Assembly (NCBI GenBank): GCA_015064635.1 | Contig: SVRV01000007.1 | Coordinates: forward strand, 20,602 to 84,601 | Source: Oscillospiraceae bacterium | Lineage (GTDB): Bacteria; Bacillota; Clostridia; Oscillospirales; SIG627 | Length of the DNA stretch: 64,000 nucleotides | Direction of reading: 5' to 3' | Shown: one piece after another, positions 3,290 through 53,421 of the stretch | Numbering within the stretch: position 1 is the stretch's first letter | How the letters are laid out: every line of letters begins with the position of its first letter | The notes under the pieces: model-generated | Databases searched by the model: none | Seen by the model: only the letters and a program-made list of their open reading frames with translations | What the model was told of the DNA's origin: nothing | Translations under genes and position numbers: made by a program

Positions 3290-4186
3290 TTACTTTGCCT
3301 TGTATTCAATAAAACGCTTGAGAATTGTCGCCATTTCGGCTCTTGTAAGTGTATCCTGGGGTGCAAGTGTGTCAACGGTCTTGCCGTTTATAAGCTTATT
3401 TGCAACCGCCCATTTCATTGCACTCAATGCCCAGGATGATACCTTATCCGCATCCTCATAGCTTGTTATTTCAAAGGAAACGTCATTCAGGCTGATTTCG
3501 TTATTGTAATTATAGAGCATAACAGCCATTTGCTCTCTTGTTATTTCTCTGTCGGGAGCAAACTTGTTGTCACCAACACCGCCGACAACCTTATTCTCAA
3601 AGCCCCATGCCGCCGCCTTGGCGTACCAAGCATCTGCCGCCACGTCAACAAAAGGAGTTCCGACAGCTTCTGGCTCTTTTTCAAGTCTGTAAATTATTGT
3701 TATTGCCATTCCTCTTGTAACCGAAGCATCGGGAGCAAATTCGGTGTCCGAGGTGCCCATCATTATCTTGTTGTTGTAAGCATAAACAACATTGTCATAA
3801 AACCAATCACCCGGCTTTACGTCAGCAAACTCGGGAGCCTTTGTTTCCTCAGGCTGAGTTGTAGGTTCTGACGGTTTGGGAGTGGGTTTAGGGTTGGGTT
3901 TGGGATTCGGCTTGGGTGTAGGTGTTTCCGTATCAGTATCCGCATCGGGAGTTGTATCCGTATCGGGGATTGTGTCCATGTCGGGATTTGTGTCCGTGTC
4001 GGGATTTGTGTCCGTGTCGGGATTTGTGTCCGTGTCGGGATTTGTGTCTGGTTTTGGATTTGCGGGAACACCGTCAAATATGATACTTGAATCTATCTCT
4101 CCCGAATCCTCCGCTGTTAAATCTGCAAAAGCAACAGTGTTTAAGAGTAGCGAAATAATAGAAACAATTATAAGTGCTTTTTTCAT
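3290..4186 (-). CDS. S-layer homology (SLH) domain cell-wall anchor protein with acidic/proline-rich repeat stalk
   Basis: The real start is MKKALIIVSIISLLLNTVAFA (ATG 4186..4184, GGAGG RBS). The 349-aa track ORF reads through the upstream hairpin. Order of parts: signal peptide, ~25-aa N-terminal segment, (DTNPDT)n and (PKPN)n linkers, then three SLH-like repeats (FADVKPGDWFYDNVVYAY.., FVDVAADAWYAKAAAWG.., YEDADKVSSWALSAMKWA..). Confidence 0.85.
   Translation of the reverse strand: MKKALIIVSIISLLLNTVAFADLTAEDSGEIDSSIIFDGVPANPKPDTNPDTDTNPDTDTNPDTDTNPDMDTIPDTDTTPDADTDTETPTPKPNPKPNPKPTPKPSEPTTQPEETKAPEFADVKPGDWFYDNVVYAYNNKIMMGTSDTEFAPDASVTRGMAITIIYRLEKEPEAVGTPFVDVAADAWYAKAAAWGFENKVVGGVGDNKFAPDREITREQMAVMLYNYNNEISLNDVSFEITSYEDADKVSSWALSAMKWAVANKLINGKTVDTLAPQDTLTRAEMATILKRFIEYKAK
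3945..4052. repeat. 18-bp in-frame tandem repeat (~6 copies, TCGGGATTTGTGTCCGTG on + strand) encoding (PDTDTN)n
   Basis: Three perfect adjacent copies at 3981..4034 are flanked by degenerate copies. The repeat lies inside the SLH gene linker. Confidence 0.9.
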
Positions 4187-4204
4187 TTTTCCTCCAAAGT
4201 ATAA

Positions 4205-4233
4205 ACGGCAGGCAGTTGTAAACCGCCTGCCGT
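4205..4233 (-). terminator. Hairpin (9-bp GC-rich stem) between the 45-aa ORF and the SLH gene; possible attenuator or partial terminator
   Basis: ACGGCAGGC..11 nt..GCCTGCCGT. In the minus sense it is followed by TTTATACTTT, which is only moderately T-rich. Confidence 0.45.
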
Positions 4234-4271
4234 CAACTAACAAATTGTTATTTACGCAAGGAAAACTGTAA

Positions 4272-4409
4272 TTATCTGAGGCTCCAGATTGAGGAATCGC
4301 CGTTTCCGCCAACGGTACCTTCTTCGCCACCGTCTTCAAGACTGGTCTTGATTATGTCTTCCTCTGAAAACTCAATTATTTCAAGTTCGGGTGAAATGTA
4401 CTCTTTCAT
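4272..4409 (-). CDS. Small acidic peptide, 45 aa (MKEYISPELEIIEFSEEDIIKTSLEDGGEEGTVGGNGDSSIWSLR)
   Basis: Below the 60-aa cutoff of the ORF track. ATG 4409..4407 has a GGAGG (extended AAGGAGG) Shine-Dalgarno core 8 nt upstream, and the start lies 13 nt after the stop of the 862-aa gene. TAA stop at 4274..4272 is followed by a hairpin. No signal peptide; strongly acidic. Confidence 0.6.
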   Translation of the reverse strand: MKEYISPELEIIEFSEEDIIKTSLEDGGEEGTVGGNGDSSIWSLR

Positions 4410-4422
4410 TATTTTTTCCTCC

Positions 4423-7011
4423 TTAGTCTCTGAAAAGGGCTGAGCCCGACATCTTATTTTTGATTATTTTATCGGTCATGGTTGTTTCCTTACCGAGAAT
4501 TTCATTGCCTTCAAGGTCAACCGCATAAGGTGTTATAATAATCTTTGCATTAGCGTTTGTATACACATCGGCATTAAGAAGGATTTCACATCCGAATACA
4601 TACTCACCGCCAAGCTGTTCGGCTGTATAAACCGTTTCAGCTGTTTCTGCCGCATTTGTAACCTTCATGCTGCTATATACTGTGGTTGTGCTGAGCTTCT
4701 GTGTCTGCTCAAGGTAATTGCCGTCCATATCAATAACAGTTACCTTGAAGCCTACCTCGCTGTACTTGAGAGTATCAACAGCCGCACAAACAGTAAGTCT
4801 GTTATAGCCTTCCTTAGCTGCCATGTTGTTGACAACAAGGAGCTTCTGCATAATTTCTACCTTTTCGGCAGGAGTATAATCAAAATCATTTTCCTCGCTG
4901 ACAGACCAATCGGTTCCGTTCTCAACATACTCACCGTTTACAAGCTCTGTTTCAAAAAGCTTAAGGTTAAGTCCGAGAGTTGCACCCTCCTCAGCGATTT
5001 CAAAGGATTCCGCACCGAAGGGATTGAAGGATTCATCGGCAGCAAGTGCTTCAAGAACTGCCTGCTTTGCTTCTTCGTTGAATGAAGGATTGTTCAAAAG
5101 GAACTCTTCATCGTTATCGCACATTACTCTGTAAATTGCACGGAGAACATCCTCGGAAAGAACTACAGCAACGCCGTCGAAGGACTGAACCATGAGAACC
5201 GCGTCAAGATAGTTGCAGGTCCATAAGGGGTTAATCTGTTCAAGCAAATCCATAACTCTTACGGATTCACCCGCCTTGATGTTCACGATACCCATGGGGA
5301 TAGTACCGTATGAACCGTAGTTACCGAGAAGAATCGCCGATACATCCTTATCGGATGAAACAAGGAAGTCGGGGTTGTAGTATGCATAAGGAGCATTGAG
5401 AGCTGACTCATAATCCTCAACAGTCTTGAAATTCATACCGTATACAGATGCTTCGGGGTTGTTGAGGTTGTTGTAGATAGCTTCTATAAGGTCGCCCTTA
5501 TACTCAGGGTTTGAATCGGCAAAGAAGGCATCAAGTGCCGCCTTGTCCAGTGAAGAAGATTCATAGAGAGGAACTGTGGGATAGGATATGAAGTTTGTCT
5601 CCTCACCGATGTCAAACTTCTCGCCTGTCTTTACAGGCTTACCGTCTCCGTCAAGAGTTGTCTCATAAAGGTCAACGCCCAATGTAAGACCGGTTGCTTC
5701 CTCTACCTTTTCAAAGGATTCTGCACCAAGGGGATTTGCAGATGAAAGAAGGAGATTGAATACTGCTTCCTCATCATATTCGCCCTCGCCCGCAACCTTA
5801 TGGTATGCACGGAGAACATCCTCTGTAACGGGGATTGCAACACACTTAAATTCTTTAACAAGAAGAACTATGTCGGCGTATGTGAAATTAGCCCATGCCT
5901 TGTATGCGGGAATGGTTGCCGCTGTCTCCATTACGTTTACGGGAACTCCCGCCTTCATGCTGACTATACCTGCGGGGATAGTACCGTATGAACCGTAGTT
6001 GCCTACAAGAAGTACGCAAACATCTGTTTCGGATACTATTTCAAAATCTACTATGTAGTTTGCATAGGGAGCGTTGATTGCGGTCTCGTAATCCTCTGTT
6101 GCAGTATATACCATGCCGAATGCCGCATTCTCGGGATTTTCAAGTGCATCGTAAACAGCATCCACTACATCTCCGCCGTACTGCGCGTTGCCTGCATCAA
6201 AGAAAGCTTCAAGCTCTTCCTTTGTCATTTCGCGTGAATCGTACACGGGAACTTCGGGATAGTAAACGAACTCTTCCTTTTCAACTACCTCATACTTTAC
6301 TTCTGTTCTTTCGAACTTGCCCTCCGAAACCTCAACGGATTCGTAAACATCAAGTCCTACGCTGAGGGGAGCTGAACCCTCTACCTTTTCAAATGACTCC
6401 GCACCGAGAGGATTAGCCATGTCAAGAAGCTCAGCAAGAACTGCCTCTTCATTGTACTCACCCTCGCCCGCAACCGCGTGATATGCACGGAGAACATCCT
6501 CTGTAACGGGGATTGCAACACATCTGAATTCGCCTACAAGGAGAACTATATCCGCATATGTGAATCTTGCCCAAGCCGCACAGCCGGGAAGCTTTGAAGC
6601 GGTCTCCATTACATTTACAGGCTCATTCGCCTTAAGGTTTACAATTCCCACGGGGATAGTACCGTATGAACCGTAGTTGCCTACAAGGAGAACTGCCGCA
6701 TCCGACTTTGAAACAATTTCAAAATCTACTATGTAGTTTGCATAAGGCTTGGTTATTGCTGTCTCATAATCTTCAACAGCTGTATAAACCATACCAAAGG
6801 CTTCGTCCTTGGTTTCAAGTGCATCGTAAAGGTCGCCTATGAGGTCGCCCTTATACTCAACATTACCATCGTCAAAAAATGCTTCAAGCTCTGCCGCTGT
6901 CATTTCGCGTGCTTCATAGGGAGGTGTCAATTCTTCAGCAAACGCCGAAAGAGAGAACACAACAACCGCCATCATAACAGCAAGCAATGTGAATTTGATC
7001 TTTCTGCTCAT
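4423..7011 (-). CDS. Secreted 862-aa protein: signal peptide, three ~225-aa tandem repeats of an unrecognised domain, and a C-terminal ~135-aa module
   Basis: Signal peptide MSRKIKFTLLAVMMAVVVFSLSAFA. Repeats cover about aa 29-251, 252-477 and 478-715, each carrying ELEAFFD.GN, DYETAI..PYANYIVDFEIVS, GNYGSYGTIP.GIV and EDVLRAYH motifs. The C-terminal module resembles the N-terminus of the 1..2582 protein. Confidence 0.85.
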   Translation of the reverse strand: MSRKIKFTLLAVMMAVVVFSLSAFAEELTPPYEAREMTAAELEAFFDDGNVEYKGDLIGDLYDALETKDEAFGMVYTAVEDYETAITKPYANYIVDFEIVSKSDAAVLLVGNYGSYGTIPVGIVNLKANEPVNVMETASKLPGCAAWARFTYADIVLLVGEFRCVAIPVTEDVLRAYHAVAGEGEYNEEAVLAELLDMANPLGAESFEKVEGSAPLSVGLDVYESVEVSEGKFERTEVKYEVVEKEEFVYYPEVPVYDSREMTKEELEAFFDAGNAQYGGDVVDAVYDALENPENAAFGMVYTATEDYETAINAPYANYIVDFEIVSETDVCVLLVGNYGSYGTIPAGIVSMKAGVPVNVMETAATIPAYKAWANFTYADIVLLVKEFKCVAIPVTEDVLRAYHKVAGEGEYDEEAVFNLLLSSANPLGAESFEKVEEATGLTLGVDLYETTLDGDGKPVKTGEKFDIGEETNFISYPTVPLYESSSLDKAALDAFFADSNPEYKGDLIEAIYNNLNNPEASVYGMNFKTVEDYESALNAPYAYYNPDFLVSSDKDVSAILLGNYGSYGTIPMGIVNIKAGESVRVMDLLEQINPLWTCNYLDAVLMVQSFDGVAVVLSEDVLRAIYRVMCDNDEEFLLNNPSFNEEAKQAVLEALAADESFNPFGAESFEIAEEGATLGLNLKLFETELVNGEYVENGTDWSVSEENDFDYTPAEKVEIMQKLLVVNNMAAKEGYNRLTVCAAVDTLKYSEVGFKVTVIDMDGNYLEQTQKLSTTTVYSSMKVTNAAETAETVYTAEQLGGEYVFGCEILLNADVYTNANAKIIITPYAVDLEGNEILGKETTMTDKIIKNKMSGSALFRD

Positions 7012-9086: not shown

Positions 9087-9272
9087 TGTATATCTCCTTT
9101 AAGTTATTATAACAGGGCTTTGCCCTGTACCCACTTAAAACCTTTTTATAAAAAGGTTTTAAGAATTCCAAAAATTTTAATGATGTTTATTCTTTAGCTT
9201 TGTTACCTTATTCTATGGAAGAAAACCGAAGGTTTTCAACCACAATTATTCATTATTCATTATTCATTATTC
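9087..9272. repeat. Intergenic mosaic hairpin element, locus A (argD/argF spacer)
   Basis: Hairpins at 9113..9127 (CAGGGCtttGCCCTG), 9135..9162 (28-nt palindrome) and 9221..9237 (GAAAACCgaaGGTTTTC), plus (ATTATTC)x4 at 9245..9272. The units recur at loci B, C, D and E. Confidence 0.85.
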
Positions 9273-10426
9273 ATTGCTTCAAGCAATACCTCTACCGCAG
9301 CCTTCAGCTCGTCCCATGTGATATTGAGGGGAGGAAGAAGTCTTACCTTATTTTTAGCCTTTATTGCAATAACGCCCTTTTCACGGCAAGCGGAAAGTAC
9401 CTCGGCAACGTCCTTTTCGCACTCGATGCCTATCATAAGACCCGCACCGCTGACACTCTTGACACCGTCGGCTCCGTTGAAGGAATCGAAGATGTATTTG
9501 CTCTTTTCTCTGACCTCGGCAAGAAGTGTGTCGTCAATTCTCGAAACAATGGAAAGTGCGCCTGCACAAGCCACGGGATTACCTCCGAAGGTTGAACCGT
9601 GGTCCCCGGGCTTCAGTGTATCCTTCACCTTTTCGCCAAGCATTGCAAGTCCAAGGGGAAGTCCTCCGCCAATGCCCTTTGCGGTGGTAACAATATCGGG
9701 TGTAATTCCGTAATTCATATAGTTATAAAGCGCTCCGCAACGTCCGTTACCCGTCTGCACCTCGTCAACAATAAGAAGGATATCTTCCTTTTTGCCTATC
9801 TCTGCAATGGCTTCAACAAAATCCTTTTCAAGAGGAAGAACTCCGCCCTCACCTTGGACGGTTTCAAACATAATAGCGGCAACCTTATTTTCCGAAACAA
9901 GACGCTTTACGTCATCAATATTATTCGCCTCGGCATAAACAAAGCCTTCTGTCAAGGGGAGGAAATCCTTATGGAAGGTATCCTGACCCGTTGCGGCAAG
10001 CATTGAAATGGTTCTGCCGTGGAAGCTGTTTTTGAGTGTTATTACCGTATTGTATTCCGCACCTTTTTTTTCTGCGGCATACTTTCTTGCCACCTTTACG
10101 GCGGTCTCGTTTGCCTCGGCACCCGAATTGGAGAAGAACACCTTCTTCATGCCCGTTCTCTTACAAAGTGTCTCCGCAAGCTTTGCGCAAGGCTCTGAAT
10201 AGAAGAGATTGGAGGTATGATGAATCTTACCGAGCTGTTCTGTTACAGCCTTTATCCACTCGTCATCGGCAACTCCGAAAACATTAACTGCAATACCTGT
10301 GCCAAGGTCTGTATATTCTTTTCCGTTTTCGTCAACTACCTTTGCGCCCTTTCCCGAAACAAGTGTTACGGGGAATCGTCCGTAGGTATTTGCGACATAT
10401 TCTTTATCAAGCTCTTGTATACTCAT
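9260..10426 (-). CDS. argD: Acetylornithine aminotransferase
   Basis: 388 aa class-III aminotransferase (DIVTTAKGIGGGLP lysine context). ATGA overlap with the argB stop. Confidence 0.9.
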   Translation of the reverse strand: MSIQELDKEYVANTYGRFPVTLVSGKGAKVVDENGKEYTDLGTGIAVNVFGVADDEWIKAVTEQLGKIHHTSNLFYSEPCAKLAETLCKRTGMKKVFFSNSGAEANETAVKVARKYAAEKKGAEYNTVITLKNSFHGRTISMLAATGQDTFHKDFLPLTEGFVYAEANNIDDVKRLVSENKVAAIMFETVQGEGGVLPLEKDFVEAIAEIGKKEDILLIVDEVQTGNGRCGALYNYMNYGITPDIVTTAKGIGGGLPLGLAMLGEKVKDTLKPGDHGSTFGGNPVACAGALSIVSRIDDTLLAEVREKSKYIFDSFNGADGVKSVSGAGLMIGIECEKDVAEVLSACREKGVIAIKAKNKVRLLPPLNITWDELKAAVEVLLEAMNNE

Positions 10427-11298
10427 TTGTTCGCCCTCTTTTCAACCACCATTGTACCTGCGCCCTCATCGGTCAGCGTTTCGATAAGTATTGAGTGAGG
10501 AATTCTTCCGTCCATTATGAATACCTTCTTAACGCCACGCTTTATCGCTTCGATACAGCATTCAACCTTGGGTATCATACCGCCCGATATAATACCGTCG
10601 TCAAAGAGCTTCTTTGCATCCTCAAGGTCAATTTCGGAAATAAGTGAGGATGGGTCATCCTTGTCCCGAAGTATTCCTGCGATATCGGTCATTGCAATAA
10701 GGCTCTCCGCCTCCATTGCACCTGCGATATATGATGCGGCGGTATCCGCATTGATGTTGTACACATTGCCATCCTTATCACATCCCACAGTTGAAACAAC
10801 GGGGATATATCCCTTTTCGAGAAGGTCAATGATGGGCTGTACATTTACATTTGTGATTCTGCCAACATATCCGAGTCTTTCATCCTTCATTTCGGCTTCA
10901 ATCATGCGTCCGTCAAGTCCGGATATACCCATTGCCTTACCGCCCTTGGATTCAAGGAGGTTTACAAGTCCTTTATTTATTTTGCCCGCAAGCACCATAA
11001 GTGCTATTTCGGCGGTTTCCTTATCCGTGACTCTGAGTCCGTCAACAAATTTGGTTTCCTTGCCGACACGGTTGAGCATATCTGTAATTTCGGGTCCTCC
11101 GCCGTGCACAAGCACGACCTTGACACCGATAAGGTGCATGAGCACAATGTCCTCCATGACATTCTGCTTGAGCTCCTCGTTTATCATGGCGTTTCCGCCG
11201 TATTTCACAACGAGTATCTTTCCGTTGTAATTCTGTATGTAAGGAAGCGCTTGGGTAAGTATTTCCGCACGCTGTGCATTTGTAACATTTAATGACAT
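10423..11298 (-). CDS. argB: Acetylglutamate kinase
   Basis: Start at MSLNVTNAQR (ATG 11298..11296, AAGGAGA RBS). AAK-family motifs VVKYGGNAM and LVHGGGPE. The longer track start falls inside the repeat element. Confidence 0.9.
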   Translation of the reverse strand: MSLNVTNAQRAEILTQALPYIQNYNGKILVVKYGGNAMINEELKQNVMEDIVLMHLIGVKVVLVHGGGPEITDMLNRVGKETKFVDGLRVTDKETAEIALMVLAGKINKGLVNLLESKGGKAMGISGLDGRMIEAEMKDERLGYVGRITNVNVQPIIDLLEKGYIPVVSTVGCDKDGNVYNINADTAASYIAGAMEAESLIAMTDIAGILRDKDDPSSLISEIDLEDAKKLFDDGIISGGMIPKVECCIEAIKRGVKKVFIMDGRIPHSILIETLTDEGAGTMVVEKRANK

Positions 11299-11516
11299 AA
11301 ATTCTCCTTTTAACCGGGGGGGCTTTGCCCTTGAACCCACTAAGAAACTATTTAATGTGTTTTTTATTATAATTCTTTGCTACCCTATCCTACGGAAGAT
11401 TTGCTGAAAGCAAATCAACCATAACGTTTGCGAAGCAAACATTTCACGTGACTTCAGTCACATTTCACCCATCCGAAGGATGGATTTCACTGACATAATG
11501 GCTCCGCCATTATGTC
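11299..11516. repeat. Intergenic mosaic hairpin element, locus B (argJ/argB spacer), including a hairpin/ATTTCAC array
   Basis: Hairpins at 11398..11416, 11426..11440, 11448..11461, 11469..11483 and 11492..11516. ATTTCAC linkers (GTGAAAT in gene sense) sit at 11441, 11462 and 11484. The last hairpin overlaps the argJ stop codon. Confidence 0.9.
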
Positions 11517-12727
11517 CTGTAATCTCCGTTAATCTTTACGTAGTCATAAGTCAGGTCACAGCCCCATGCAACAGCATTTCCGTCACCCGAGTTGAGAGAT
11601 ATAAGTATTTCGATTTCCTTTTCTGTAAGCACCTTCTTGGCAATTTCCTCCGAAAAGTCGATTCCTGCACCGTTCTCGCATACCGCAACCTCGCCTGCCG
11701 CAGAGCGGAACTTTACATCCACCTTTGTAACGTCAACATCTGCACCGCTGTAACCGATAGCGCAAAGCACTCTGCCCCAGTTTGCATCGGCACCGAACAT
11801 TGCCGCCTTGGTAAGAGATGAACAGATAACGCTCTTTGCCACGACCTTGGCTGTCGCCTCGTCCTTTGCTCCGTCAACCTTGCATTCAAGAAGCTTTGTT
11901 GCGCCCTCTCCGTCTCCCGCTATCATTCGGCAAAGGTAAACTGTTACCGAGTTGAGTGCCTTCATAAAGGCATCAAAATCCTCGCCCTCGGCATCAATGA
12001 GCTTGTTGCCCGCCATACCGTTAGCCATTACGGTTACCATGTCATTTGTGGAGGTATCTCCGTCAACACTTACCATATTGAAGGTGTTTGCGATATCGCT
12101 CTTCAATGCCTTTGACAGCATTTCGGGTGATATATTACAGTCGGTAGTAATGAACACAAGCATTGTTGCCATGTTGGGATGAATCATACCCGAGCCCTTT
12201 GCTATACCGCCTATTTTACATTCAACGCCGCCGATGTCAAAGGAAAGTGCTATTTCCTTTTTAACTGTGTCTGTTGTCATTATTGCTTCAGCCGCAAGTG
12301 CACTGTTGTCGCCAAGTCCCGCAACAAGCTCTGCCATGCCGTTTTTAACGGGTGTTACGTCAAGTCTCTGACCGATAACACCGGTGGATGCAACAACCAC
12401 ATCGGTTGCGTCAATTCCAAGCTCTGCCGCTGTTATTTCACACATTTTTGTTGCAATTTCAATGCCGTCAGCGTTGCAGGTGTTTGCGTTTCCGCTGTTA
12501 CAAACTGCCGCTCTTGCATATCCGTTTGCAATATTCTGCTTTGTGACGGTGATGGGGGCACCCTTTACAAGGTTTGTAGTATATACTGCCGCAGTGGCAG
12601 CAGGAGTCTCACTCACTATAAGGGCAAGGTCTCTCTTCGTCTTACCTGCTCTGATTCCGCAATGTATTCCGTTTGCTTTAAATCCCTTTGCGGCACAAAC
12701 GCCGCCCTGTACAGACTTAATATTCAT
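11510..12727 (-). CDS. argJ: Bifunctional glutamate N-acetyltransferase / amino-acid acetyltransferase
   Basis: 405 aa ArgJ family with the self-cleavage region HPNMATMLVFITTD. Confidence 0.92.
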   Translation of the reverse strand: MNIKSVQGGVCAAKGFKANGIHCGIRAGKTKRDLALIVSETPAATAAVYTTNLVKGAPITVTKQNIANGYARAAVCNSGNANTCNADGIEIATKMCEITAAELGIDATDVVVASTGVIGQRLDVTPVKNGMAELVAGLGDNSALAAEAIMTTDTVKKEIALSFDIGGVECKIGGIAKGSGMIHPNMATMLVFITTDCNISPEMLSKALKSDIANTFNMVSVDGDTSTNDMVTVMANGMAGNKLIDAEGEDFDAFMKALNSVTVYLCRMIAGDGEGATKLLECKVDGAKDEATAKVVAKSVICSSLTKAAMFGADANWGRVLCAIGYSGADVDVTKVDVKFRSAAGEVAVCENGAGIDFSEEIAKKVLTEKEIEILISLNSGDGNAVAWGCDLTYDYVKINGDYRT

Positions 12728-12916
12728 ATATATCTCCTTAAAGTTTAGTTATCTTACGGTGTTATTTTTGGGTGAAAACCGAAACAATGCACAGTGCTCA
12801 GTGCACAATGCACAATTAAGGAAGATTTTGCGAAAGCAAAATCAGCCAAAATTATTCGTGATTCATTATTCATTATTCACTATTCATTATTCATTGCATA
12901 ACGCACAGCGTTATGC
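12728..12916. repeat. Intergenic mosaic hairpin element, locus C (argC/argJ spacer)
   Basis: A 5' UTR cassette at 12728..12783 is shared with the GH43 gene. Hairpin at 12824..12843. (ATTATTC)-type heptamers x6 at 12851..12892. Hairpin GCATAACGCacaGCGTTATGC at 12896..12916 abuts the argC stop. Confidence 0.9.
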
Positions 12917-13843
12917 CTATATCTCAAGTCCTGTTTCGGCGGGGAGTCCCATTGCAAGATTGAGACATTCTATTGCCGCACCCGATGCACCCTTACCAAG
13001 GTTGTCATACTGTGCAATAAGGAGAATTCTCTCCTCGTTGCCTGCAACGGACACGGTCATGGAATCCTTGAATCCCATAGAAAGTCCCGACACAAATCCG
13101 TCGGCTGACGCTTCGTCAATATACTTTACAAGGGGTGTGTTGTATTTATCCTTATATATCTTCTTTATATCCTCGGCGCTTCCATTAATCTGTGAAGCAA
13201 AAAGAGGTACTGTCACCGTCATACCGCTGTAAAAGTCGCTTACAACAGGCGTGAATATTGGGAATTCATCAATCCCCGTAATAGCCTTCATTTCTTTGAG
13301 ATGCTTGTGAGTCTGGGTGAGGCCGTACTGACGGGGGGCTGAAAGAAGTGTGTCTCTCTCCTCTGCCTCATACTCTGCTATCATCTTCTTACCGCCTCCG
13401 CTGTAGCCTGTAATGGAATGACAGAAGAGATTTAAGTCGGATGGAATGATTCCCGCCTTGACAAGAGGATATACAAGAGCAATAAATCCGCCTGCGTGAC
13501 AGCCGGGCACCGCAATTCTCTTGGAATTCTTGATTCTTTCCTCAAAGCTTTCGTCAAGCTCGGGGAATCCGTATGCAAATTCGGGATTGGTTCTGTGTGC
13601 CGTTGATGTGTCTATAATAACGGTACTAGGGTTATTAACCATTGCAACCGCCTCAATTGCCGCCGCATCGGGCAAGCAGAGGAAGGTCACGTCACTTTTG
13701 TTTATTATTTCGGCACGTGCCTCGGGGTCCTTACGCTTTTCCTCGGTAAGAGTGATTATTTCAAACTCACGTCTCTTTCCAAGTCGCTCGTGAATACGAA
13801 GGCCTGTCGTTCCCGCACTGCCGTCAATGAATATTTTTTTCAT
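12917..13843 (-). CDS. argC: N-acetyl-gamma-glutamyl-phosphate reductase (short type)
   Basis: Start at MKKIFIDGSAGTTGLRI (ATG 13843..13841). The 372-aa track ORF runs on into AT-rich promoter DNA. Contains the AVPGCHAGG active-site Cys region. Confidence 0.88.
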   Translation of the reverse strand: MKKIFIDGSAGTTGLRIHERLGKRREFEIITLTEEKRKDPEARAEIINKSDVTFLCLPDAAAIEAVAMVNNPSTVIIDTSTAHRTNPEFAYGFPELDESFEERIKNSKRIAVPGCHAGGFIALVYPLVKAGIIPSDLNLFCHSITGYSGGGKKMIAEYEAEERDTLLSAPRQYGLTQTHKHLKEMKAITGIDEFPIFTPVVSDFYSGMTVTVPLFASQINGSAEDIKKIYKDKYNTPLVKYIDEASADGFVSGLSMGFKDSMTVSVAGNEERILLIAQYDNLGKGASGAAIECLNLAMGLPAETGLEI

Positions 13844-14026: not shown

Positions 14027-14065
14027 CTCACACAACCTATAAATTGCGTGAGAGAAATTCTTTTA
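14027..14065 (-). terminator. Rho-independent terminator after the DUF4838 gene
   Basis: TCTCTCAC..16 nt..GTGAGAGA, followed in the minus sense by TTTTTTT. Confidence 0.6.
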
Positions 14066-17947: not shown

Positions 17948-17956
17948 TAAATAATT

Positions 17957-17994
17957 GGAGAAGGGTGCTTTTGAAGTCAAAAGCACCCTTCTCC
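17957..17994. terminator. Perfect 16-bp stem hairpin between convergent genes
   Basis: GGAGAAGGGTGCTTTTgaagtcAAAAGCACCCTTCTCC. Neither side has a strong T tract, so it may be a terminator or an RNA stabiliser. Confidence 0.5.
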
Positions 17995-18047
17995 AAACCT
18001 CATCCCGAAAAACAATGTTTGAAATTTTATTATTAATTAATATCCTT

Positions 18048-18126
18048 AATTTTAAAGTTTTTGGAATTCTTAAACCTTTTTTCAAAAAGGTTTAAGCGGT
18101 TCCAAGGCAGAGCCTTGGCAGGGGTT
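18048..18126. repeat. Intergenic mosaic hairpin element, locus D
   Basis: About 75 nt align to the reverse complement of locus A (9111..9180), with compensatory changes in both hairpins. Confidence 0.8.
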
Positions 18127-18146
18127 GAGACAGAGTCCCAATATAA

Positions 18147-50600: not shown

Positions 50601-52029
50601 ATCCCCCGATATTGACCTTAACTTCTCGGGTGAGGTTCAAGGCAAGGTACATAAATACACAGAAGAGCTCTTCGGAAGTGAAAACGTATTCCGTGCGGGA
50701 ACCCTTGGCACACTTGCCGAGAAAACCGCATACGGATTTGTTTTAAAATATCTTGAGGGCAAGAATATTTCCATGCCAAAGGCGGAAATGAATCGCCTTG
50801 CCAACGGTTGCGTTGGTGTAAAGCGTACCACAGGACAGCATCCCGGCGGTATCATAGTTGTACCACGTGAAAACAGTGTATACGAATTCACTCCCGTACA
50901 GCATCCCGCCGATGACCCGAATTCCAGCACTATCACAACGCACTTTGCTTTCTCCTATCTTCACGATACAATTCTTAAGCTTGATGAGCTCGGACACGAT
51001 ATTCCAACCAAATACAAAATGATTGAAAAGTACTCGAACACCAACATTATGGAGGTCCCCATGAACGACCCCAAGGTTTACGAGCTTTTCAGATCAACCG
51101 AGCCCCTCGGAGTCACTCCGGAAGACATCGGCTGTCCCCTTGGAACGCTGGGACTTCCCGAGCTTTCCACAGACTTTGTTCAGCAGGTTCTTGTCGAAGC
51201 CAAGCCCAAAAACTTTGCAGACCTTTTGCAGGTTTCGGGACTCACCCACGGTACAGACGTGTGGCTGGGTAATGCGCAAGACCTTATCAACGAGGGAATA
51301 TGCGACATTTCAAAGGTTATCGGAACCCGTGACGGTATCATGCTTGACCTTATAAACTACGGACTTGAAAACAAGCTTTCCTTTGACATAATGGAAAAGG
51401 TTCGTAAGGGTAAGGGACTTACTCCCGAGCACGAGGCGGCAATGAGGGAAAAGAACGTACCCGACTGGTACATTGCATCCTGTAAGAAGATAAAATACAT
51501 GTTCCCGAAAGCTCACGCTGCCGCTTACGTAATGAGTGCCATTCGTATCGGCTGGTATAAGATTTATATGCCCGTATCCTTCTATGCAGGCTTCTTTACA
51601 GCGGCACCCGGCGGATTTGATGCGGGAATTGTCCTTGGAGGACGTGCAAATGTTGTGCGTTTCATTGCCGATGTAAAGGCGAATAAGCACGAGGCAAGCC
51701 AAAAGGACCTCTCGCTCATTCCAACTCTTCAGCTTGCAAACGAATGTATGTGCAGAGGTATACCCTTCCTGCCCATTGACCTTAAAAAATCCCATTCACA
51801 TCACTTCATACCCGAAGGAAACGCAATACGCCTTCCCTTCTCAACACTTGGCGGTGTGGGTGATGCCGCAGCCGACAGTATATACGAAGCAATGAACACC
51901 GGTGAACCGATTCTCTCCGTTGAGGACCTGCGCACACGCTCGGGAATATCCAAGGCGGTAATTGATACACTGCGTGAATTCGGTGTACTTGGAGACCTGC
52001 CCGAGACAAATCAGATAACAATGTTTTAG
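47653..52029 (+). CDS. polC: DNA polymerase III PolC-type
   Basis: 1458 aa with an exonuclease domain (FIIFDIETTGL) and PHP/polymerase domains. TTG start; TTG at 47659 is an alternative with better RBS spacing. Confidence 0.92.
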   Translation: MKLEIEKNSISLAEKLSKYQPEGIKKALLEGIYSYKCGVNKEKRTIVIHISSDKLFQKSLLYEIENEIKAAYDLTACFLLPHYESKLFSEGYYSELITELKRNTAFANGFFDGGKMVLEGNTLTFMLDGGLGKLPQDAECARIISDIIKSEFDLALDVSINDASPFDMDAYIAQSQRSMPMPTAPEKKEEVTREAVYSLMEASPVEESEESEEKSEGGVQSFRSGFMEFDLTEKSVIYGKDRKKETPLCAIKNVFGAEQKKLIAVCGKVFFADSRETRSGDKTIATVQITDEESSVSIKFFCSTEAWSEAKGSLKPGNVLQVIGQADFDKFDNEIVLKPVTVYKISSKKRKDDAPEKRVELHIHSQLSAMDAVIAPADIVSTAHAWGHRAVAITDHGNVQGFPDAMLAAEKLGMKVIYGLEAYFVDDTARAVYGESNASFEKDTFIIFDIETTGLSALTCGITEIGAVKYQSGKILDRFNTFVNPDMPIPQNIVELTGITDDMVKDAPDTETAVKSFLDFCEGNILVAHNANFDMSFIKKASEDYSLDCQNPYLDTLALSRHINTDLKKHKLDTLQEYYGLESFNHHRACDDAEMLAKIFECMCQKLKKEGIANISDMILSMSEKTDPKKLRPYHMIILVKNQMGMMNLYRLVSESYLTYFNRLPRIPKTLLERFRDGLIIGSACEAGELYQAVLAGKGMGDLLKIASFYDYLEIQPLCNNAFMIENGTVPDENKLIEINKSIIELGKKAKKPVVATCDAHFLNKQDEIFRRILVSAKFSDADRPNPLYFRNTEEMLAEFSYLDEKTAHEVVITNTNLIADMVDDEIRPIPKGTFTPNLEGAEEDLQNMCWTKAKSIYGDPLPDIVYKRLDKELTSIIKNGYAVLYIIAQKLVNYSESQGYLVGSRGSVGSSFVASMASISEVNPLPPHYYCPECKYSEFITDGSVGSGFDLPDKTCPKCGAALKGDGHDIPFETFLGFYGDKSPDIDLNFSGEVQGKVHKYTEELFGSENVFRAGTLGTLAEKTAYGFVLKYLEGKNISMPKAEMNRLANGCVGVKRTTGQHPGGIIVVPRENSVYEFTPVQHPADDPNSSTITTHFAFSYLHDTILKLDELGHDIPTKYKMIEKYSNTNIMEVPMNDPKVYELFRSTEPLGVTPEDIGCPLGTLGLPELSTDFVQQVLVEAKPKNFADLLQVSGLTHGTDVWLGNAQDLINEGICDISKVIGTRDGIMLDLINYGLENKLSFDIMEKVRKGKGLTPEHEAAMREKNVPDWYIASCKKIKYMFPKAHAAAYVMSAIRIGWYKIYMPVSFYAGFFTAAPGGFDAGIVLGGRANVVRFIADVKANKHEASQKDLSLIPTLQLANECMCRGIPFLPIDLKKSHSHHFIPEGNAIRLPFSTLGGVGDAAADSIYEAMNTGEPILSVEDLRTRSGISKAVIDTLREFGVLGDLPETNQITMF

Positions 52030-52563
52030 CATAACGCTGTGCGTTATGCAGTGAAATGTTTTGACGTTGTCAAAACGTGAAATTCACCTTCGGTGAGTGA
52101 AATGTGACTGAAGTCACATGAAATGTTTGCTTCGCAAACGTTAAGGTTGATTTTCTTCGAAAATCTTCGATTGATTATAGCGGACCGTCGAGGACGCCGG
52201 TCCCTACAAATGTATTTGTTGCAAAAGTGGGTAAAGAGACGAAAGTGAGTCGAGCAGAAAGCAAAGTATTGCGAAAAAAGACGAAAAAATTTCAAAAGGT
52301 GGGAGTTTTGGAGGGAAAATCGCGGAGTGCGAAGGCGTCGGCGTACTTATGTACGCCAGTCCGAGCAACACGCGAAGAAAATGAAATTTTCACTGATGGA
52401 GAAAACCTTTGGTTTTCAACAAAAGAAGAAATGCTTTGGGGAGCGATTTGTTCGCACTACAAAAGCGTGGGAGTGAACACAGCCGAAAATAAACAACTAT
52501 TTCATTTTCGGTTTTCACCCAAAAATCATCACCGTACGATAACTAAACTTAAAGGAGACATAC
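52029..52563. repeat. Intergenic mosaic hairpin element, locus E (largest; polC/GH43 spacer)
   Basis: A hairpin/GTGAAAT array at 52029..52165 starts on the last base of the polC stop codon. Further hairpins at 52183..52204 and 52348..52365 and around 52399..52421 and 52482..52511. The terminal 5' UTR/RBS cassette (52507..52563) is ~90% identical to the one in front of argJ. Confidence 0.9.
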
Positions 52564-53421
52564 ATGGAAATATTGCAGGGCGCTGACCCTTTCATCCTTC
52601 TTCATGACGGAAAATACTACTGTTACCCCACATCCGACTCACATAACGGATACATCGTTTACGAATCCGACGACCTGATAAACTGGACAGACCGAGGATA
52701 CTGTCTCGTAAAGGATGATGTTATGGGTAATGACAACTTTTGGGCGCCGGAGGTAACCTATTATAACGGAAGGTTCTATATGGTATATACCGCCAATCTT
52801 CACCTTGGGATAGCGGTCGCCGACAGTCCTTTAGGTCCCTTCAAGCAGACAGAGAAAAAATGGTTGAGTGAGGACAGAGCTATTGACGGAAGCTTTTTCA
52901 TCGACGATGACGGAAGCGTCTACCTTTACTATGTGGGATATAACAATCCGGGCGGTCCCATATGTGTAAACCGCCTGTCAAAGGATCTGCTTTCCTTTGA
53001 CAGTGAGCAAAAGGTGCTCATCCGTCCCACTCAAGAATGGGAGCTTGTGACCGCCTACGAATATGAGGGTCAAACCCTTTGCGTAACCGAAGGACCTTTT
53101 ATGCTGAAGCACAAAGGGAAGTATTATCTCTCCTACTCCGCAAATGACTATCAGAGTCCGTCCTATGCCATAGGATACGCTGTTTCCGACTCTCCCATGG
53201 GTGATTTTATGAAGTATGAAAATAATCCGATTCTTATAGGAAGCGGTGAGATTCAAGGCACAGGTCACCATTCCTTTACTACAACAAAGGATAAAAAAGA
53301 GCTGATATGTGTTTTTCATGCACATAACAGCAAAACCGAAATTCATCCGAGAATGACACACATCCTACCCGCAAGGTTTGTAACCGAAAACGGCGAGGAT
53401 GTGCTGAAGATATCAAATTAA
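52564..53421 (+). CDS. GH43 family glycoside hydrolase
   Basis: 285 aa with ADPFILLHDGKYY, FWAPEVTYYNGRFYMVY and EGPFMLKHKGKYYLSYS. Confidence 0.85.
   Translation: MEILQGADPFILLHDGKYYCYPTSDSHNGYIVYESDDLINWTDRGYCLVKDDVMGNDNFWAPEVTYYNGRFYMVYTANLHLGIAVADSPLGPFKQTEKKWLSEDRAIDGSFFIDDDGSVYLYYVGYNNPGGPICVNRLSKDLLSFDSEQKVLIRPTQEWELVTAYEYEGQTLCVTEGPFMLKHKGKYYLSYSANDYQSPSYAIGYAVSDSPMGDFMKYENNPILIGSGEIQGTGHHSFTTTKDKKELICVFHAHNSKTEIHPRMTHILPARFVTENGEDVLKISN

Follow-up and report, generated by a model that had tools for sequence, protein, structure and literature searches.

How two unrelated genes come to be preceded by nearly the same 58 nucleotides, right up to the start codon, is the question raised by a 64,000-nt stretch of DNA (hereafter the window; 45% GC) from an uncultured Oscillospiraceae bacterium. 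The genes are argJ and a GH43 gene, an assignment proposed in an earlier note on this DNA and borne out by Pfam matches of the two products (PF01960, 2.6e-147, and PF04616, 6.4e-53, respectively); the ArgJ protein of the window is NCBI entry MBE6650414.1. When the sequence upstream of argJ (12784..12725, minus strand) was aligned with that upstream of the GH43 gene (52506..52566, plus strand), 55 of the 61 aligned positions were identical, ATG included, with one 1-nt gap, in agreement with the ~90% identity that the note had claimed. A 20-mer (TTCGGTTTTCACCCAAAAAT) and a 29-mer (CACCGTAMGATAACTAAACTTWAAGGAGA) are each present at exactly two places in the window, the expectation from 100 shuffles being zero for both, and the similarity reaches ~45 nt 5' of the SD. 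The shared feature is thus real and not a product of chance. In the argJ copy (12728..12784, minus strand), TTTCGGTTTT is followed by a block that we call X (CACCCAAAAATAACACCGT) and by a tail (AAGATAACTAAACTTTAAGGAGATATAT), with GGAG at 12737..12734 and the argJ ATG at 12727..12725. In the GH43 copy (52507..52563, plus strand), the X block (CACCCAAAAATCATCACCGT) occupies 52516-52535, GGAG 52554-52557 and the GH43 ATG 52564-52566. Together with a tail-only copy (AACTTAAAGGAGATATACA, 9105..9087, minus strand) that ends at the argF ATG, these two cassettes make up the tally for the 64-kb window.

The start codons, on whose position the earlier note had made its proposal depend, are genuine by three concordant observations: each ATG is the earliest possible start 3' of an in-frame stop, GGAG lies 6 nt 5' of the ATG in both argJ and GH43, and the alignment of both proteins to PDB homologues of solved structure begins at residue 4-7. 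An assembly artefact is excluded as well for the region upstream of argJ, since the 190 nt 5' of this gene are identical in four independent metagenome contigs (JGI or ENA).

The cassettes had been described as 5' UTRs, a label that does not hold. The genes argC-argJ-argB-argD-argF all lie on the minus strand and polC and GH43 both on the plus strand, and the promoter-like sites of the arg operon are found 5' of argC; the cassettes therefore belong to intercistronic spacers within operons. For argC itself, the longest-ORF start at 14035 is misleading, the start probably lying near 13843 (308 aa, as called in the related contig L001), preceded by a terminator (14055-14024) and a promoter-like TTGAAA-17-TATTAT (14004-13976). 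A consensus scan revealed nothing promoter-like, either between 52000 and 52600 or within the cassette, and a promoter that might be picked out by eye within the cassette (-35 TTTTCA, 16 nt, -10 TAAGAT) was accordingly rejected, the scan being one for canonical promoters.

An all-versus-all comparison of the intergenic regions of the window showed that shared modules concentrate in four spacers, argC-argJ, argJ-argB, argD-argF and polC-GH43. The polC-GH43 spacer (52030..52563, plus strand; 534 nt, or 535 nt if counted from 52029, whose G is shared with the polC stop codon) is a mosaic in which a stop-proximal hairpin, a Gut-1 module, a GGTTGA-hairpin-TCTTCG unit, a GGACCG..CGGTCC hairpin, a ~95-nt segment, a folded domain and the RBS tail follow one another. 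Its stop-proximal hairpin (GCATAACGC-TGT-GCGTTATGC, 52029..52049) overlaps the final base of the polC TAG, and the same arms (GCATAACGC-NNN-GCGTTATGC, 12896..12916, minus strand) stand directly 3' of the argC TAG. As it is not followed by a T-run, we do not take this hairpin for an intrinsic terminator. The interior of the argC-argJ spacer (12785..12895, minus strand) consists of (TGAATAA)n (12852-12893), a GGCTGA-hairpin-TCTTCC unit (12820-12847) and (GTGCAYT)4 (12786-12813); the folded domain is missing and the argJ cassette is a solo 3' fragment. The argJ-argB spacer (11299..11509, minus strand) holds a stop hairpin, a Gut-1 module, a GGTTGA-hairpin-TCTTCC unit (11394-11420) and AGTGGGT-hairpin-AAAAGGAGA (11303-11341), and the argD-argF spacer (9087..9259, minus strand) a GGTTGA-hairpin-TCTTCC unit (9217-9241), an AGTGGGT-hairpin (9103-9135) and the tail-only copy (9087-9105). 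GGYTGA-hairpin-TCTTCC units thus occur four times in the spacers of the window, and, as the earlier note had it, AGTGGGT, a hairpin and AAAGGAGA stand in front of both argB and argF. The true start of argB is the ATG at 11298..11296, the GTG 'start' of its longest ORF (11340) sitting in the AGTGGGT repeat motif.

Several further repeats were observed in the window. A second TGAATAA array (9246-9273, minus strand) encodes the last three argD codons and the stop, the protein ending EAM-NNE, where that of the relative L007 ends EAM-KI. A 42-nt segment with the palindrome AAACCTTTTT(A/C)(T/A)AAAAAGGTTT is common to 9134-9180 (minus strand, argD-argF) and 18052-18096; as the latter lies in a convergent intergenic region (17948-18146), the repeat modules are not limited to the four main spacers. 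An 862-aa ORF (4423-7011, minus strand) that lacks a Pfam match is built of three tandem 678-nt (226-aa) repeats, and its neighbour, an SLH-domain protein (3290-4339, minus strand), carries an 18-nt tandem repeat (3927-4052); both are probably cell-surface proteins.

The first half of the cassette became intelligible as part of a larger structure. A predicted folded RNA domain of ~235 nt (52298..52533, plus strand) lies between polC and GH43 and is composed of P1 (52298-52301 and 52306-52311 with 52519-52524 and 52530-52533; GGTG:CACC and TTTTGG:CCAAAA), P2, a long hairpin with many compensatory pairs (52320-52375), and P3 (52377-52386 with 52500-52509), in which GAAAATGAAA pairs with TTTCATTTTC. 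The 3' strands of P3 and P1 make up the first ~27-35 nt of the cassette (TTTCATTTTC...CCAAAA...CACC). The 58-nt unit of the earlier note is therefore a real shared stretch, yet one of two halves, these helix strands and a ~30-nt SD-bearing tail.

Support for the fold came from an alignment of nine full units, some of them close relatives and all of them used to derive the structure, in which RNAalifold proposed 50 pairs with compensatory changes in 16 of them. The proposed partners could pair in 96.2% of pairing cells, as opposed to 40-57% with slid partners, and double-change pairs numbered 16 as opposed to 1-6 in the slid controls; none of 500 shuffles attained the observed pairing values. 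An independent inverted-repeat search also returned P3, in the window and in contig L015, where its sequence is different (GAAAAGGCA with TGCCTTTTC). G.U cells (~29) outnumbered A.C cells (~6), which favours the sense strand as the RNA, although folding energy separates the strands weakly (-86.9 kcal/mol, z = -3.3, for the window unit in sense; -80.2 kcal/mol, z = -2.9, in antisense). P1 comprises no more than 4 + 6 bp, interrupted by an internal loop, and covaries at one pair alone. Among the units of L015, a single genome, one tandem pair is 98% identical, and mutual identity is otherwise 55-67% with the helices kept. Within these spacers Gut-1 (RF01706) is the sole Rfam family matched at E ≤ 5, and the cassettes (12728-12784 and 52507-52563) and the folded domain lie outside the Gut-1 model and match no family at that cutoff. 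On the strength of the covariation, the domain may be regarded as a new structured-RNA candidate from uncultured gut Oscillospiraceae. A 119-aa ORF (52227-52586) runs through the polC-GH43 spacer and has six translated relatives in the protein collection. We rejected it as a gene: it has no Pfam match and no SD, its frame breaks among the relatives, and the substitutions are compensatory for RNA helices.

The second half of the cassette is an A/U-rich tail of ~30 nt (52534..52563, plus strand; GTRAGATAAC..AAAGGAGATATAT), which in the GH43 copy contains TAA triplets, carries the SD AAAGGAGA at 52551-52558 and ends at the ATG. It is unpaired in the consensus and the centroid fold, and in the centroid structure of the window unit tail, SD and AUG are all free. 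The tails bear AAGGAGA and an ATATAT-like spacer abutting the ATG, and their TAA triplets close two to three reading frames before the SD. AAGGAG is a generic SD, and ordinary genes of the window have varied RBS contexts; the longer string AAGGAGA(T/C)ATA(T/C) was found at 8 of 11 element-associated starts and at none of 10 native starts of empty sites (see below). Ungapped identity at -21..-1 (0.42 versus 0.35) discriminates poorly because of 1-nt register shifts and tells us less than this motif count. In three L015 copies (argJ, argF and uxuA) the tail has diverged, which implies that the junction of the element is not always flush with the ATG and that some of the resemblance in SD and spacer could stem from the native sites or from convergence. 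Since the genes preceded by the element have no SD besides the element's own, we infer that the tail serves as the working translation initiation region of the downstream gene.

Orthologous genes in relatives, a comparison that the earlier note had called for, provided junctions that lack the element. Contigs L007 (ArgJ 87% identical) and L008 (83%) carry a compact argCJBDF cluster with gaps of 0-15 nt, the argC-argJ gap being 15 nt in the former and 0 nt in the latter, compared to 189 nt in the window. Likewise, the polC-GH43 gap measures 14 nt in L016 (GH43 82% identical) and 80 nt in L017 (81%), compared to 535 nt in the window. L017 shares the dxr-rseP-ispG-polC-GH43 synteny of the window, and its 80-nt gap holds a terminator. 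Shared synteny and short gaps indicate an ancestral adjacency of polC and GH43 and a 535-nt spacer gained in this lineage. A comparison of filled with empty sites, across relatives that are 13-19% diverged at the protein level, showed no duplicated flank, because the native spacer seems to have been replaced. A search of four spacers for inverted repeats recovered internal helices, P3 among them, but no pair linking the two ends, and no transposase or recombinase was found in the 64-kb window. With terminal inverted repeats, target-site duplications and a transposase all unseen, mobility is deduced from distribution alone.

That distribution was established by two routes, ArgJ orthologues and translated relatives of the 119-aa ORF, followed by an nhmmer profile of the cassette. 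Two contig collections were of no help, as they evidently do not contain this organism: the exact 20-mer scan gave two chance matches, both in Proteobacteria, in the genome contigs and none in the metagenome contigs, where a translated-element scan gave 209 pattern matches, none of them confirmed. The nhmmer profile recovered copies ending at the ATG of argJ and GH43 in the window, of thiI in L012 and of a gene for an AP_endonuc_2 TIM barrel in L011, and further copies at the gene after purD in L010, at argB, uxuA, argJ and argF in L015 and at the end of L013. In related contigs, other genes are preceded by no fewer than nine further copies, and the module stands before argJ, GH43, argB, argF, uxuA, thiI, the TIM-barrel gene and two unidentified genes; every copy found is on the sense strand. 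Most of the extra copies come from short metagenome contigs that are possibly chimeric across repeats. The spacers of L010, L011 and L012 have an architecture like that of polC-GH43. Truncated copies occur in spacer interiors, where CACCCAAAAGACACACCGTRA runs on into CAAAAGGTGGGAGTTTTGGAGGG without an RBS and the block CACCCAAAAGACACACCGT is likewise found without any RBS. The claim that the repeat family ends in a portable RBS module thus survives insofar as RBS-bearing ends do abut the ATGs of unrelated genes; its anatomy is what needed refining.

In contig L015, whose ArgJ falls in the same 90% protein cluster as that of the window, the arg spacers measure 351, 852 and 193 nt, and 21 kb contain four full folded domains. 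The 852-nt spacer, between argJ and argB (11213-12064), contains two tandem ~250-nt folded-domain units that are 98% identical and three tandem copies of ACGGACCGTCGAGGACGCCG; the gene caller had placed a 174-aa antisense ORF there, which has no Pfam match. In L009 (ArgJ 93% identical) a longer version of the element precedes argJ, and a 23S_rRNA_IVP (PF05635) gene lies directly 3' of argJ (1493-1849), flanked by (GCAGAAT)n upstream (~1400-1430) and by ATTCTGC with a GGYTGA-type hairpin in inverted orientation downstream, an arrangement that resembles an inserted unit with inverted ends. L012 (polC-spacer-thiI) is identical to the window over 436 nt (51958-52393) and differs frequently from 52480 on, before running into thiI; either copies have recombined or the assembly is chimeric across the repeat, and under either reading the last ~85 nt of the spacer travel with the downstream gene. 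Contigs with the element or with close GH43 orthologues (L009-L014, L016 and those in the match tables) are nearly all shorter than 2.5 kb, and short-read assemblies seem to break at these repeats, which can yield chimeric contigs and mis-called ORFs or starts such as the 119-aa ORF and the argB GTG.

Taken together, these data are best explained by a multi-copy mosaic intercistronic element that has the 58-nt stretch as its 3'-terminal module and supplies the translation initiation region of the gene downstream, a reading to which we assign a probability of about 0.7. A single lineage of uncultured Oscillospiraceae (Ruminococcaceae) from gut or rumen carries this element. It spans the whole gap from the upstream stop to the downstream start between co-oriented genes and, lying in sense orientation, would be part of the operon mRNA. 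Its 5' end is usually a hairpin at the stop codon and its interior a variable set of heptamer arrays, Gut-1 array, GGYTGA-hairpin-TCTTCC units and, often, the ~235-nt folded domain, and its 3' module comprises the 3' strands of P3 and P1 followed by the unpaired A/U-rich tail that carries the SD and abuts the ATG. The short native junction would have been replaced along with its RBS, so that translation of the downstream cistron would now be initiated from the tail. The folded domain, as modelled, probably holds upstream RNA off the RBS or marks a processing site. Nesting, tandem duplication, truncation and exchange between copies were all observed, and the first three of these point to active turnover.

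An account that would refine the preferred reading rather than compete with it takes the spacers for RNA-processing or insulator elements, in which P1, the stop hairpin and the Gut-1 array direct cleavage by an endonuclease such as RNase III. The outcome would be an upstream mRNA with protective 3' hairpins and a downstream mRNA with a standardised, open RBS. The spacer leads from hairpins at the stop through a closed folded domain to an unstructured RBS tail, which is consistent with this, as is the finding that the L009 spacer of similar kind holds a gene for a 23S-rRNA-intervening-sequence protein, 23S rRNA intervening sequences being excised by RNase III. Given how short P1 is, with its one covarying pair, and that the proposal derives from anatomy alone, we consider it rather doubtful.

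We think it improbable that the element is a cis-regulatory leader, riboswitch-like or protein-binding, with the cassette as its expression platform, in which case a regulon would share it by selection and not by spread. A covariation-supported domain does stand directly 5' of an RBS, and selection on the fold is implied by its being kept at 55-67% identity within one genome; moreover, the 5' strand of P1 (AAAGGTGGGAG) is SD-like and has the X block as its partner, and the internal X copies could allow alternative pairings. However, a regulon would have to unite arginine synthesis, GH43, thiI, uxuA and a sugar-phosphate TIM barrel, genes that are unrelated, and orthologous sites lack the element in relatives whose proteins are 81-87% identical. 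Copies are truncated, nested and tandemly duplicated, that of argJ has no domain, the predicted fold leaves the SD unpaired and suggests no alternative that would sequester it, and Rfam offered no match at E ≤ 5.

That a one-off duplication or gene conversion joined these two spacers, with no family behind it, is very unlikely: the window does contain two full copies, and exchange between copies seems to occur, as the 436 nt common to the window and L012 and their subsequent divergence suggest, but at least nine more copies precede other genes in related contigs, and three other segments are common to these spacers. We dismiss chance, convergent optimisation of the RBS or an encoded small protein (ORF 52227-52586), for which the generic nature of AAGGAG with an A/U-rich spacer and the six translated relatives of the ORF might speak, in view of the zero matches expected, a similarity that extends ~45 nt beyond the SD, the different native RBS regions and an ORF that lacks Pfam match and SD, changes frame in relatives and bears substitutions compensatory for helices.

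If the tail of the preferred mosaic element works as an RBS, a natural repeat would carry its own signals for starting translation and could for that reason spread inside operons. We tentatively entertain the further idea, possible but not one we would lean on, that these spacers represent an undescribed class of operon-compatible selfish or domesticated element, of which the Gut-1 'sRNA', an orphan for 15 years, is one module. Its parts would be a stop hairpin that sometimes supplies the stop, the ~235-nt RNA, stops in multiple frames and an SD of its own at the ATG, and the ~235-nt RNA may direct processing or serve the element's own propagation.

How the element relates to known systems depends on the module considered. 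Gut-1 was published as a candidate free-standing sRNA found only in the gut, with no function assigned (Weinberg et al., 2010, PMC2864571). In the window it is matched at 52049..52129 (plus strand, 66.5 bits), where (G/A)TGAAAT heptamers alternate with hairpins, and at 11416..11492 in the argJ-argB spacer (minus strand, 52.2 bits), both above the gathering threshold of 50 bits; additional matches were observed in L012 (92-172 and 1877-1957), L011 (125-205) and L007 (14551-14625, minus strand). The published three hairpins separated by GUGAAAU correspond to one module of these mosaic spacers. As opposed to the free-standing sRNA that was proposed (PMC2864571), all matches here lie within a mosaic spacer, shortly 3' of a stop codon and on the sense strand of the upstream gene, and in L011 and L012 the Gut-1 unit is nested inside the other element. 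From these positions Gut-1 looks like an intercistronic or 3'-proximal module, which would give this Rfam orphan a genomic context.

The 7-nt direct-repeat arrays (TGAATAA, GTGCAYT and, in L009, GCAGAAT) recall the TAACTGA heptamer repeats that occur intergenically, near start codons, in Beggiatoaceae and cyanobacteria (PMC4679880). Both form forward arrays of 7 nt near starts, change in 7-nt indel steps and are missing from the shorter spacers of close relatives; however, the heptamers here are TGAATAA, GTGAAAT, GTGCAYT and GCAGAAT and constitute one module among several, and the Beggiatoa repeats mostly lack the SD that is present here.

In architecture, the closest counterparts are BOX of S. 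pneumoniae (boxA-boxB(n)-boxC) and the REP/BIME repeats of enterobacteria, which are modular, hairpin-rich intergenic repeats (PMC2817692, PMC3049150) that occupy transcribed regions and are present or absent between relatives. As with BOX, the ends of the element (stop hairpin, X block plus tail) recur while the interiors differ, as at argC-argJ in the window, L015 and L009, a likeness of architecture. Akin to BIMEs, the spacers are mosaics of short palindromic units in intergenic regions. REPs, on the other hand, alternate in orientation and are tied to RAYT transposases, whereas the modules here are all co-oriented with the genes and the window encodes no RAYT (Y1) transposase; the terminal inverted repeats of MITEs are missing from the four spacers searched. 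To our knowledge, neither BOX nor BIME units have been described as donating an SD to a downstream gene. Synthetic 5'-UTR insulators (RiboJ, bicistronic designs) combine a folded RNA with a standard open RBS and make initiation independent of the upstream sequence. The window element shows the same succession of folded RNA and open RBS and, by analogy, might insulate in the same way, although it is a natural repeat and no self-cleavage motif was detected in it by Rfam.

In logic, MIRUs come closest. They are intercistronic, co-transcribed and missing in M. leprae, and their insertion sites are start codons, the downstream gene being coupled to an ORF of the repeat; as their ends touch the flanking stop and start signals, insertion affects downstream expression little (PMC3184786, PMC12548453). 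The element described here is likewise intercistronic and co-oriented with the flanking genes: every copy is in sense, with the hairpin beginning 0-6 nt past the stop codon and the tail reaching the ATG, and orthologous junctions in related genomes lack it. MIRUs, however, measure 40-100 bp, carry a coupled ORF with a -4 overlap and belong to Mycobacterium, whereas the elements here are mosaics of 170-850 nt from Clostridia with a ~235-nt folded domain and a free SD, and have no internal ORF coupled to the downstream start: TAA triplets close frames in the tails, the heptamer arrays contain stops, and the one long ORF is not conserved in frame. The best reading is that of a lineage-specific, MIRU/BOX-like intercistronic repeat. 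Judged by their sequence, the cassette-bearing spacers would belong among the intercistronic mosaic repeats, and the idea of an RBS module appears sound in substance. If the tail is a working RBS, the problem of residing inside an operon, which MIRUs meet by a coupled ORF, would be met here by a free SD.
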